From the IMG/VR virus record IMGVR_UViG_3300037042_004723, positions 96,001 to 160,000 of that record: a DNA stretch of 64,000 nt; one strand, 5' to 3'. The translations under genes and the position numbers were made by a program. Under the pieces are notes generated by a model, which saw only the letters and a program-made list of their open reading frames with translations, ran no database searches and had not been told where the DNA came from. Of this stretch, positions 1,107 to 29,687 are shown piece by piece. The stretch comes from a virus. Position 1 is the stretch's first letter. Each line of letters opens with the position of its first letter.

Positions 1107-1179
1107 TCCGCCGAGATGGACTTGAACCAGCAACCTATCGCTTATAGGGCAGCCGCTATATCCATTGAGCTATGGGATC
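1104..1179 (-). pseudogene. Chimeric tRNA-like gene, anticodon TAT
   Basis: GATCCCA-TA-GCTC-AATGGATA-TAGC-G-GCTGC-CCTATAA-GCGAT-AGGTT-GCTGG-TTCAAGT-CCATC-TCGGCGG-A-CTA. tRNA spacing and T loop are intact, but the acceptor stem does not pair and the anticodon stem pairs poorly. Confidence 0.7.
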
Positions 1180-1183
1180 AGAA

Positions 1184-1436
1184 AGGTGACTCTCCACGTC
1201 CGAAGTGTTTATCGGCCGCTGGCTTGCGCCAACCATGCCCGGTCGACCAAGCCTTGCGGCTCACCGACTCCGGGATCTACCCTCGCCTGGTAAAGAGTCT
1301 AAAAAGAGGGGCCGCCGCCCCGGATGTTTAATGTGCGCGGGACCCTAGGTTCGACCGACGCAAGCGCTTGCGCTGCTATTGCGTGAGAAGTGCTCGATGC
1401 TGTTTTGGATGATAACCATCGGACTCCGGCTCACCT
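1184..1436 (-). ncRNA. Candidate structured non-coding RNA (~250 nt), family not recognised
   Basis: ORF-free gap closed by nested end-to-end helices (AGGTGA/TCACCT, GTCCGA/TCGGAC, TTATC/GATAA). Internal hairpins GAGCC-GCAA-GGCTT, GTTGGC-GCAA-GCCAGC and GGGGC-GGCG-GCCCC. Same strand as the tRNAs. Confidence 0.55.
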
Positions 1437-1442
1437 AAAATG

Positions 1443-1715
1443 TCAGGCCTCTGCGGTTCCGATCGGAATCTGGAAGGAGAGTCCCTCCCCTTCCAGGAAT
1501 CTCGCGTGGAGGCGGTTGATCAGCTGGTCGAAGGTGAAGCTGTCATCTGACGAGCCAACGTGCGTGTGGTCCTCGCCGATGTAGAGGGTGATGGCATTCC
1601 CTCCCCAGTCTGGCCCGAACGAGACAACTGGAGCCGTTGGATCTTTGCCGGCTGCGGCATCGCAGAGCCGGACAATCTCTTTCAGTATCTCTTCGCATTT
1701 CTCAGCTGTCGTCAT
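1443..1715 (-). CDS. Hypothetical protein (90 aa)
   Basis: ATG at 1715 (MTTAEKCEE...). The track start at 1742 lies inside tRNA-Glu and was trimmed. Confidence 0.7.
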   Translation of the reverse strand: MTTAEKCEEILKEIVRLCDAAAGKDPTAPVVSFGPDWGGNAITLYIGEDHTHVGSSDDSFTFDQLINRLHARFLEGEGLSFQIPIGTAEA

Positions 1716-1897: not shown

Positions 1898-2071
1898 ATG
1901 AACGACAAGCGAAAGCAAAGCCTCTACTTCCCAGAAGACATGCTGGCGGAGGTCCAGGCCGAAGCCACTCGCCTGGACCGCTCGCTCTCTTGGGTGGTCC
2001 AGCGCGCCTGGACCCTCTCAAGGGAGAAGCTGAAGGAGATCCCTTCAATCAACCAGCCAACAGAGACAGAC

Positions 2072-2074
<3 letters not shown>
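1898..2074 (+). CDS. MXAN_4361/MXAN_4362-family (TIGR04563-like) small ribbon-helix-helix-type protein
   Basis: Not in the ORF track. 58 aa: MNDKRKQSLYFPEDMLAEVQAEATRLDRSLSWVVQRAWTLSREKLKEIPSINQPTETD. The KQSLYFPE...DRSLSWVVQ.AW signature was recognised from memory as a myxobacterial family. Confidence 0.8.
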
Positions 2075-2148
<74 letters not shown>

Positions 2149-2154
2149 GGTCAG

Positions 2155-6749: not shown

Positions 6750-6963
6750 CGACGACAACTCGGTCATCGGTGGCCTCAAGAAAATGGCCGTGCTTGAGGG
6801 ATATGAGCCGGGAACCGATCGGTTTGAGATGCGAGTTCGTCAGCTCCAGGTCACCAAATGCCGAGAGATGAAGGGCGTTAACTCTTGTCATGAGTGCAAT
6901 TTTTTTGACTACTGCGACCTGGTCAAGAAAGTGATGCGAGAGCGGCGTGGCCACGACGAATAG
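6736..6963 (+). CDS. Small Cys-rich protein
   Basis: C...SCHECNFFDYC motif; overlapping operon arrangement. Confidence 0.7.
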   Translation: MSLDDDDNSVIGGLKKMAVLEGYEPGTDRFEMRVRQLQVTKCREMKGVNSCHECNFFDYCDLVKKVMRERRGHDE

Positions 6964-29213: not shown

Positions 29214-29687
29214 ATGGGTTTCGGCAAGAAGAAGCGACAGATCCGAGAGGCGCTTGCGAAGTGGGATTGCTTTGGTCACCTTGGCTATGGTCAGGGACGA
29301 GCGGTGGCTCAGTTCGGCGAGCGTGATCTGCATGGCAGGTCTGCGTGCTTGGACGTCTGTACCCGCGCAAGCGCTTGCAGGGCTTTGCATCGTGACAGGA
29401 TGAATGAGCGGTATCCCCAGCTTGGGCAGCTCGTTGAATCGACATCCAGGCTGGCTCAGGCACGTGGCCTTGATGTCGTTACTGAAGTGGTGTCGGCGAT
29501 GGGGCACGCCGCCGAGCTTGGTCTTGATGAGGCTGTCGATGTCAGGAGAATCCTTGGCCTATTCAAGGTCGACGAGATGACAGACCATTACCGCTGCGGT
29601 CAATTTGAAAACATCCAGGATGGCCTCAGTAAGGCGCTGCCAGGTTCGCGTGTCGCTCTCGATGAGGCCAAGAAGAAGGCTTCCTAG
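29214..29687 (+). CDS. Cys-rich hypothetical protein
   Basis: 157 aa, abuts the previous stop. Confidence 0.7.
   Translation: MGFGKKKRQIREALAKWDCFGHLGYGQGRAVAQFGERDLHGRSACLDVCTRASACRALHRDRMNERYPQLGQLVESTSRLAQARGLDVVTEVVSAMGHAAELGLDEAVDVRRILGLFKVDEMTDHYRCGQFENIQDGLSKALPGSRVALDEAKKKAS

Follow-up and report, generated by a model that had tools for sequence, protein, structure and literature searches.

A conserved 112-nt structured RNA in the tRNA cluster of an uncultured phage

The locus and its minus-strand features

The analysed window is a 64,000-nt stretch of DNA (bases 96001 to 160000) from a 197,279-bp IMG/VR virus record of an uncultured phage. The record is rated 100% complete, has a GC content of about 56%, and encodes a DnaB-like helicase and a UvsX-like recombinase. 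Every tRNA was placed on the minus strand by ARAGORN and Rfam; therefore, the stretch flagged in the initial annotation (positions 1184 to 1436) was to be read on the minus strand. The window's own genome (G000) was compared with G001, which carries the contig L005, and with the fragment G012, which carries L023 and is the closest relative by helicase identity (84%). Eight tRNAs were called by ARAGORN in the window genome versus 37 Rfam tRNA matches in G012. Because of this difference, which was obtained with two different tools, the tRNA island of the window genome appears to be decaying. A 94-nt tRNA-Met(CAT) was called by ARAGORN at 2056-2149 (minus strand), and Rfam aligned only model positions 8 to 63 of it (33 bits). 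This gene overlaps the 3' end of a convergent 58-aa ribbon-helix-helix ORF (1898-2074). Two neighbouring plus-strand ORFs (264-581 and 603-1106), convergent with the minus-strand tRNAs, have the N-terminal peptide MF(R/K)xLISEC in common and are otherwise unrelated; neither gave a Pfam match.

The features of the flagged stretch and its flanks are listed in Table 1. No Pfam match was found for the 90-aa ORF upstream of the stretch. This ORF is followed by a repeat unit of about 70 nt, which occurs in tandem in the relatives, with three units in L023 (758-965) and two in L005 (4271-4425); the window genome has a single, truncated copy. The units have a covarying closing stem of 7 to 8 bp, which is then followed by a T-run. 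They gave sub-threshold matches to RF01656 (25 to 30 bits versus a cut-off of 38), a likeness that probably arises through shape alone.

The adjoining segment is the remnant of a gene termed ORF-X, which is intact in L005 (4690-5070), L035 (840-1195), and L028 (3330-3630, minus strand) and is interrupted by stop codons in the window and in L023. ORF-X has no Pfam match. Its conserved frame, followed by eye from ...NVAGR..., is one base out of register with the sole ATG nearby that has a Shine-Dalgarno sequence (GGAGGTACGAAATG) and runs into the RNA gene before reaching any stop codon of its own. The frame offset and the missing stop codon could reflect unusual initiation or a programmed frameshift. 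A promoter in the conserved GCGYACATT box was considered and rejected, since the conservation of this box is explained by the ORF-X codons for AYIQH.

The ORF-X remnant contains the 12-bp palindrome GCAAGCGCTTGC. Eleven copies of this palindrome are present in the 197-kb genome versus about 0.01 expected by chance (window positions 1360-1371 and 29367-29378; G000 positions 6848, 13885, 16969, 30699, 36003, 48017, 62024, 83788, and 93436). The palindrome is usually flanked in such a way that CGC-GCAAGCGCTTGC-GCG results and often lies beside or within GGAAAACTC...GAGTTTTCC hairpins; one copy has a TTGTCA box on one side and a TATTAAT box on the other. The palindrome probably serves as an operator of the phage or as a hairpin signal in RNA.

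Next to the conserved RNA lies the GC hairpin GGGGCGGCGGCCCC, followed on the minus strand by TCTTTTTAGA, which corresponds to the GC-rich hairpin and U-run of an intrinsic terminator. Across the 3-kb region, terminator-like sites are no more frequent than in shuffled sequences. This hairpin (1308-1321) had been counted among the elements of a single large RNA. It does exist, but it is terminator-like, and of the five contigs, the window and L023 alone carry it, whereas the other three (L005, L035, and L028) lack it. The pairings TCCGGG/CCCGGA and CCCTC/GAGGG, assigned to the same RNA, are complementary in sequence but involve this non-conserved hairpin region. No promoter was recognisable between the terminator-like hairpin and helix P1 of the conserved RNA in the window and in L023.

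Downstream, the conserved RNA ends 11 to 24 nt before tRNA-Arg(ACG) in the relatives and 8 nt before a chimeric pseudo-tRNA in the window. The acceptor strands of the pseudo-tRNA are not complementary, its score against the Rfam tRNA model was 21.8 bits (cut-off, 29), and no tRNA was called at 1107-1179 by ARAGORN. A deletion between shared AUAGCUCAA boxes would explain the origin of the chimera. At the 3' end, the chimera directly adjoins the stop codon of the convergent ORF 603-1106. A further tRNA-like gene, located in L023 (1045-1262), has an insert of about 135 nt between its 5' half (GCCCCTGTGGCCAAGTGGTTAAGGCG) and a 3' T-arm plus acceptor ending in ...GTCGGTTCAATCCCGACCAGGTGC. The insert matched no Rfam family, and the gene was not called by ARAGORN.

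Table 1. Features in and around the flagged stretch (window positions)
Feature	Position	Strand	Basis or remark
90-aa ORF	1443..1715	-	Upstream, same strand; homologue at 65% identity in L005
Truncated copy of ~70-nt hairpin/T-run repeat unit (GAGCCGRAG...GGGTTAYC...)	1400..1440	-	Comparison with L023 and L005
Decayed 3' end of ORF-X	1322..1405	-	Nucleotide and peptide similarity to ORF-X tail, by eye
12-bp palindrome GCAAGCGCTTGC	1360-1371		Inside ORF-X remnant
Terminator-like GC hairpin GGGGCGGCGGCCCC + TCTTTTT	1300..1321	-	Pattern scan; outside conserved RNA
Core structured RNA, four-way junction P1-P4	1188..1299	-	Covariance-model hits, covariation, RNAalifold, fold z-score
P1 5' strand GACUCUUU	1292..1299	-	Pairs with 1188-1195 (GGAGAGUC)
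P2 arm	1232..1291	-	P2a, 11-nt bulge, P2b, P2c, apical hairpin
P2a	1286-1291 with 1232-1237	-	Pair 16-65 switches G-C / A-U
Asymmetric 11-nt bulge CGAGGGUMGAU	1275-1285	-	5' side; invariant
P2b	1271-1274 with 1238-1241	-	Invariant, hence unproven
P2c	1264-1268 with 1242-1246	-	Three compensatory pairs
P2 apical hairpin AGCC-GCAA-GGCU	1250-1261	-	GCAA-capped form in window and L035
P3 hairpin, GNRA tetraloop	1220..1231	-	GCAA in window, GAAA in relatives
P4 hairpin CGGCCG/CGGACG	1197..1218	-	Near-invariant 10-nt loop L4 AUAARCACUU (1203-1212)
P1 3' strand	1188..1195	-	Followed by ACC in window, L023, L028, and L035, not in L005
Chimeric pseudo-tRNA	1107..1179	-	5' part like tRNA-Arg(ACG), 3' part like tRNA-Ile(UAU); aligned to tRNAs of relatives

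Distribution and fold of the core RNA

A covariance model (R1) was built from two copies of a block of about 110 nt, one from the window and one from L005 (IMGVR_UViG_3300015360_000024), which had been located through the homologue of the upstream 90-aa ORF. Searching with R1 revealed one copy each in the window's genome, G001, and G012. Two more contigs, L035 (Ga0315912_10037150) and L028 (from ERZ1292644), came from a metagenome pattern scan. The window and these four other contigs each hold a single copy of the core RNA, with covariance-model scores of 115 to 144 bits. The five contigs represent four distinct sequences; the L028 copy is identical to the L023 copy, and their flanks differ. 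Exact-pattern scans of IMG/VR, JGI metagenomes, and GTDB genomes, followed by a covariance-model check, gave no homologues beyond the four other contigs, and the scan matches L025-L027, L029-L033, L036-L042, and L044-L062 were rejected by this check as chance matches. In the tRNA regions of distant helicase relatives (36 to 64% identity), no homologue was detected with model R2 with filters off; the best match was a class II tRNA with an E value of only 0.3. A protein-anchored search with a 167-aa ORF found nothing, and blastn against GenBank phages matched the neighbouring tRNA alone. On its 5' side, the core is preceded by an ORF tail in some contigs and by a terminator with a gene remnant in others, and the 3' tRNA varies too; therefore, the core behaves as a discrete module.

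The initial annotation had described the whole flagged stretch as one structured RNA of about 250 nt, closed by a long helix of 1431-1436 with 1184-1189. The complementarities on which this was based exist in this one sequence (AGGTGA 1184-1189 with TCACCT 1431-1436, GTCCGA 1198-1203 with TCGGAC 1419-1424, and TTATC 1209-1213 with GATAA 1411-1415), and all of these helices also appear in the minus-strand minimum free energy fold. As a single unit, the 253 nt folded no better than shuffled sequences, with z = -0.71 for the plus strand and only -2.07 for the minus strand. In L005, only two parts of the region recur, namely, about 40 nt just past the ORF stop codon and the block of about 110 nt directly upstream of the tRNA-Arg gene. 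They are about 700 nt apart, with two tRNAs and a gene between them. In L005, L023, L028, and L035, tRNAs, an ORF, or both intervene between the two halves, and the long closing helix has no counterpart in the relatives. The outer helices would have to form at the expense of P1 and P4 in the conserved core, and the upstream half consists of a gene remnant and a repeat with copies throughout the genome. A single RNA of about 250 nt is already contradicted by these comparative data and is scarcely credible. The flagged 253 nt are not one RNA but four minus-strand pieces, of which only 1299-1188 is kept as a unit. The closing helix proposed earlier joins the repeat fragment to the core's own P1 and P4 strands and is not conserved; the closing helix of the conserved RNA is formed by 1292-1299 with 1188-1195. 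The idea of an unrecognised structured RNA in the tRNA cluster holds, since the conserved RNA has no Rfam match and includes two of the hairpins described, but its length is about 112 nt and not about 250 nt.

The core RNA was modelled as a four-way junction of the helices P1 to P4. Helix P1 comprises 8 bp in the window and 10 to 13 bp in the relatives, reaching 13 in L023 and L035. Four of its eight pairs show compensatory double changes, and 96.9% of the alignment cells pair. The two GCAA (GNRA) hairpins of the initial annotation are real on the minus strand (1250-1261 and 1220-1231), and both lie inside the conserved RNA, as the apex of P2 and as P3. In L005, L023, and L028, the P2 apex is instead formed by a shorter CCAGC-CUUAGUA-GUUGG hairpin, and an 8-nt indel in P2 separates the long and short forms. 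In P3, a G-C/A-U switch is seen at one pair and a C-G/U-G switch at another, and all cells pair. The P4 stem is invariant and so has no support from covariation; 79% of its cells pair, position 86-103 is non-canonical in every sequence, and the stem is also predicted by RNAalifold. Of two TAAACA motifs pointed out previously, the one in loop L4 is conserved and the other is not.

Comparison of the four distinct sequences revealed standard pairs in 93.4% of cells versus 29 to 49% when the partners were slid by 1 to 3 columns. Among these four sequences, nine pairs are changed on both sides, with P1 contributing four, P2c three, and P2a and P3 one each, and the covariation score was reached by none of 500 shuffles. 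Covariation was found within 1188-1299 of the minus strand, which was kept as a unit, whereas the outer helix of the 253-nt stretch is not conserved. The same four arms were obtained with RNAalifold, unconstrained by the manual model. Formal covariation statistics would be underpowered here, since the distinct sequences number only four and all belong to one narrow phage lineage. The fold z-score was -5.05 for the window core and -3.17, -2.40, and -1.02 for the homologues. Unpaired positions are more conserved than paired ones (29 of 38 versus 44 of 74 columns invariant). Twelve cells contain G-U pairs, and therefore the opposite strand would pair less, in only 84.6% of cells, which favours a minus-strand RNA.

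These data also bear on the possibility that the core is not an RNA gene at all but the relic of a decayed tRNA, a cluster of palindromes acting at the DNA level, or coding sequence of the antisense ORF 1116-1331 (plus strand). This ORF is open in the window and L035, where the peptides are similar, the tRNA region of the window genome appears to be decaying, and the best distant R2 match was a class II tRNA, at the E value given above. The 8-nt indel breaks the antisense frame in the relatives, the G-U pairs favour a minus-strand RNA, compensatory changes are present in three helices, and there is no tRNA signal within 1188-1299. Altogether, this explanation is most improbable. On the sense strand, the upstream ORF-X reads 45 to 100 nt into the core in L005, L035, and L028, with different frames and stop positions. 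Because of the 8-nt indel in P2 and because the frame of the upstream ORF across the core differs among the contigs, the core RNA is judged to be non-coding. These results show that the core is an RNA module of the tRNA cluster that is discrete, specific to one strand, and under structural constraint.

Comparison with known RNAs

Rfam 15 (4,227 models, including RNase P, tmRNA, SRP, 6S, riboswitches, small ribozymes, and GOLLD/ROOL) was searched. The core gave no match at the gathering threshold or at E ≤ 10, and neither strand of 1184-1436 as a whole gave any match at E ≤ 10 either. The homologue L023:1501-1608 gave none at E ≤ 1. ARAGORN and RF00005 detected no tRNA or tmRNA signal in 1188-1299; this segment has no GTTCRA T-loop, and no tmRNA was called. 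Several candidates were rejected. A group I intron in a tRNA was dismissed because the flanking tRNA is complete, SRP 4.5S RNA and RNase P CR-I because the likeness was restricted to superficial strings with no Rfam match, and twister and hairpin ribozymes because their topologies do not fit.

The comparison with GOLLD drawn in the initial annotation is borne out by the location and by nothing beyond it. Like the core, GOLLD, ROOL, and other large phage-associated noncoding RNAs are orphan structured RNAs of phage or prophage DNA, in some cases located close to tRNAs; they are five to eight times larger than the core RNA.

Theta ribozymes are minimal double pseudoknots; as ribozymes of the HDV-like type, they are expected to cleave at their own 5' end. 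They are HDV-like elements of gut phages with a proposed role in tRNA maturation through 3'-trailer processing (PMC10879173), and they resemble the core RNA as small structured RNAs physically coupled to phage tRNA genes. In contrast to them, the core RNA lies upstream of the tRNA, forms a nested four-way junction in which all covariation-supported helices are nested, and matches no HDV-like model. The core might nevertheless be a new small self-cleaving ribozyme that separates the mRNA of the upstream ORF from the tRNA precursor. Its compact junction fold with invariant unpaired nucleotides, the known association of self-cleaving HDV-like theta ribozymes with phage tRNA genes (PMC10879173), and the ORF that runs straight into the core in three contigs are consistent with such an activity. 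However, the core matched no ribozyme family even at E ≤ 10, its fully nested four-helix topology fits neither a hammerhead core nor an HDV-like double pseudoknot, and no cleavage-site signature was identifiable in it. Theta ribozymes have been proposed for tRNA 3' trailers (PMC10879173), whereas the core RNA precedes the tRNA. The suggestion of a ribozyme, also made in the initial annotation, found no support in the analysis and is very unlikely.

Two small RNAs of unknown role come from the tRNA region of phage T4 (PMC3014915, a 2010 review). These are rnaC (139 nt) and rnaD (119 nt), the species 1 and species 2 stable RNAs, annotated beside tRNA-Arg in NC_000866. T4 RNAC and RNAD are the closest known kind, being small non-tRNA RNAs of similar size in a phage tRNA cluster, on the tRNA strand, and by tRNA-Arg; encoding in the tRNA cluster and on the tRNA strand was likewise found for the core RNA. 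When R1 was run with filters off over the T4 tRNA region, nothing overlapping rnaD was matched, and within rnaC the score was only 4.7 bits (E value, 3.7). The fold of T4 rnaC shows a tRNA-like GGUUCGAAUCC T-arm, whereas the core RNA is without one, and RNAC and RNAD follow tRNAs, whereas the core RNA precedes them. The core is an uncatalogued RNA family of the same kind as T4 RNAC/RNAD but separate from and unrelated to them.

The position of the core directly before the tRNAs raises the question of a cis-acting function. The core could be a leader of the downstream tRNA-Arg array that acts in processing or antitermination. Either the P1 5' strand would serve as a NusB/NusE site of the boxA type, or the long P1 stem would guide endonucleolytic release of the tRNAs. 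It always ends 8 to 24 nt upstream of a tRNA on the same strand, and an untranslated tRNA array would gain from protection against Rho. The P1 5' strand (GCUCUCUACC, ACUCUUUACC, or GUUCUUUACC) matches, by eye, 8 to 9 of 10 positions of GCUCUUUAAC, which we take to be the rrn boxA core, a likeness noticed after the fact. Like the boxA leaders of rrn and lambda, this pyrimidine-rich strand heads an untranslated RNA array. A boxA site would be expected to be single stranded and to recur ahead of untranslated operons; the P1 5' strand is base paired, covaries with the P1 3' strand, and is not repeated at other arrays. The boxA-like motif is not enriched over a reversed-pattern control in three related genomes (G000, G001, and G012), and there is one core copy per genome despite many tRNA sub-clusters. 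In addition, the core is intact in the window genome, where the tRNAs to be served were deleted, and a simple processing stem needs neither an invariant bulge nor the L4 loop. A cis-acting leader is therefore regarded as rather unlikely.

Proposed role of the core RNA

The explanation that we favour, with moderate confidence, is that 1299-1188 (minus strand) encodes a trans-acting small noncoding RNA of about 112 nt that forms a four-way junction and is released from a tRNA precursor. The main reason for favouring an independent role in trans is that the RNA is intact in the window although deletion of the downstream tRNAs has left a dead chimera in their place. The core RNA would be transcribed within the phage tRNA precursor; transcription into the core past the terminator-like hairpin is assumed for the window and L023. 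RNase P would probably release it by cutting where the next tRNA begins, with trimming as far as the P1 clamp, as for T4 RNAC/RNAD, and the product would be a stable RNA that acts in trans. The 11-nt bulge and the L4 loop, both single stranded and invariant or nearly so, may form a recognition surface for a protein or RNA partner. The GNRA tetraloop of P3 probably braces or docks on the P2 arm; docking is proposed because the P3 arm adjoins P2 at a matching distance from the junction. A search of the phage genome for targets of the L4 loop gave only the core's own antisense site and no other complementary site.

A bolder proposal is that the core founds a new functional class of RNA in phage tRNA islands. 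Such an RNA might be self-cleaving or ligand binding, or it might act in trans through the 11-nt bulge and the 10-nt loop on a host translation, tRNA-processing, or anticodon-nuclease defence factor. We consider this distinctly unlikely.

The RNA family described here is narrow, with four sequence variants and no cultured host. The survival of the core where the neighbouring tRNAs have decayed points to a role of its own.
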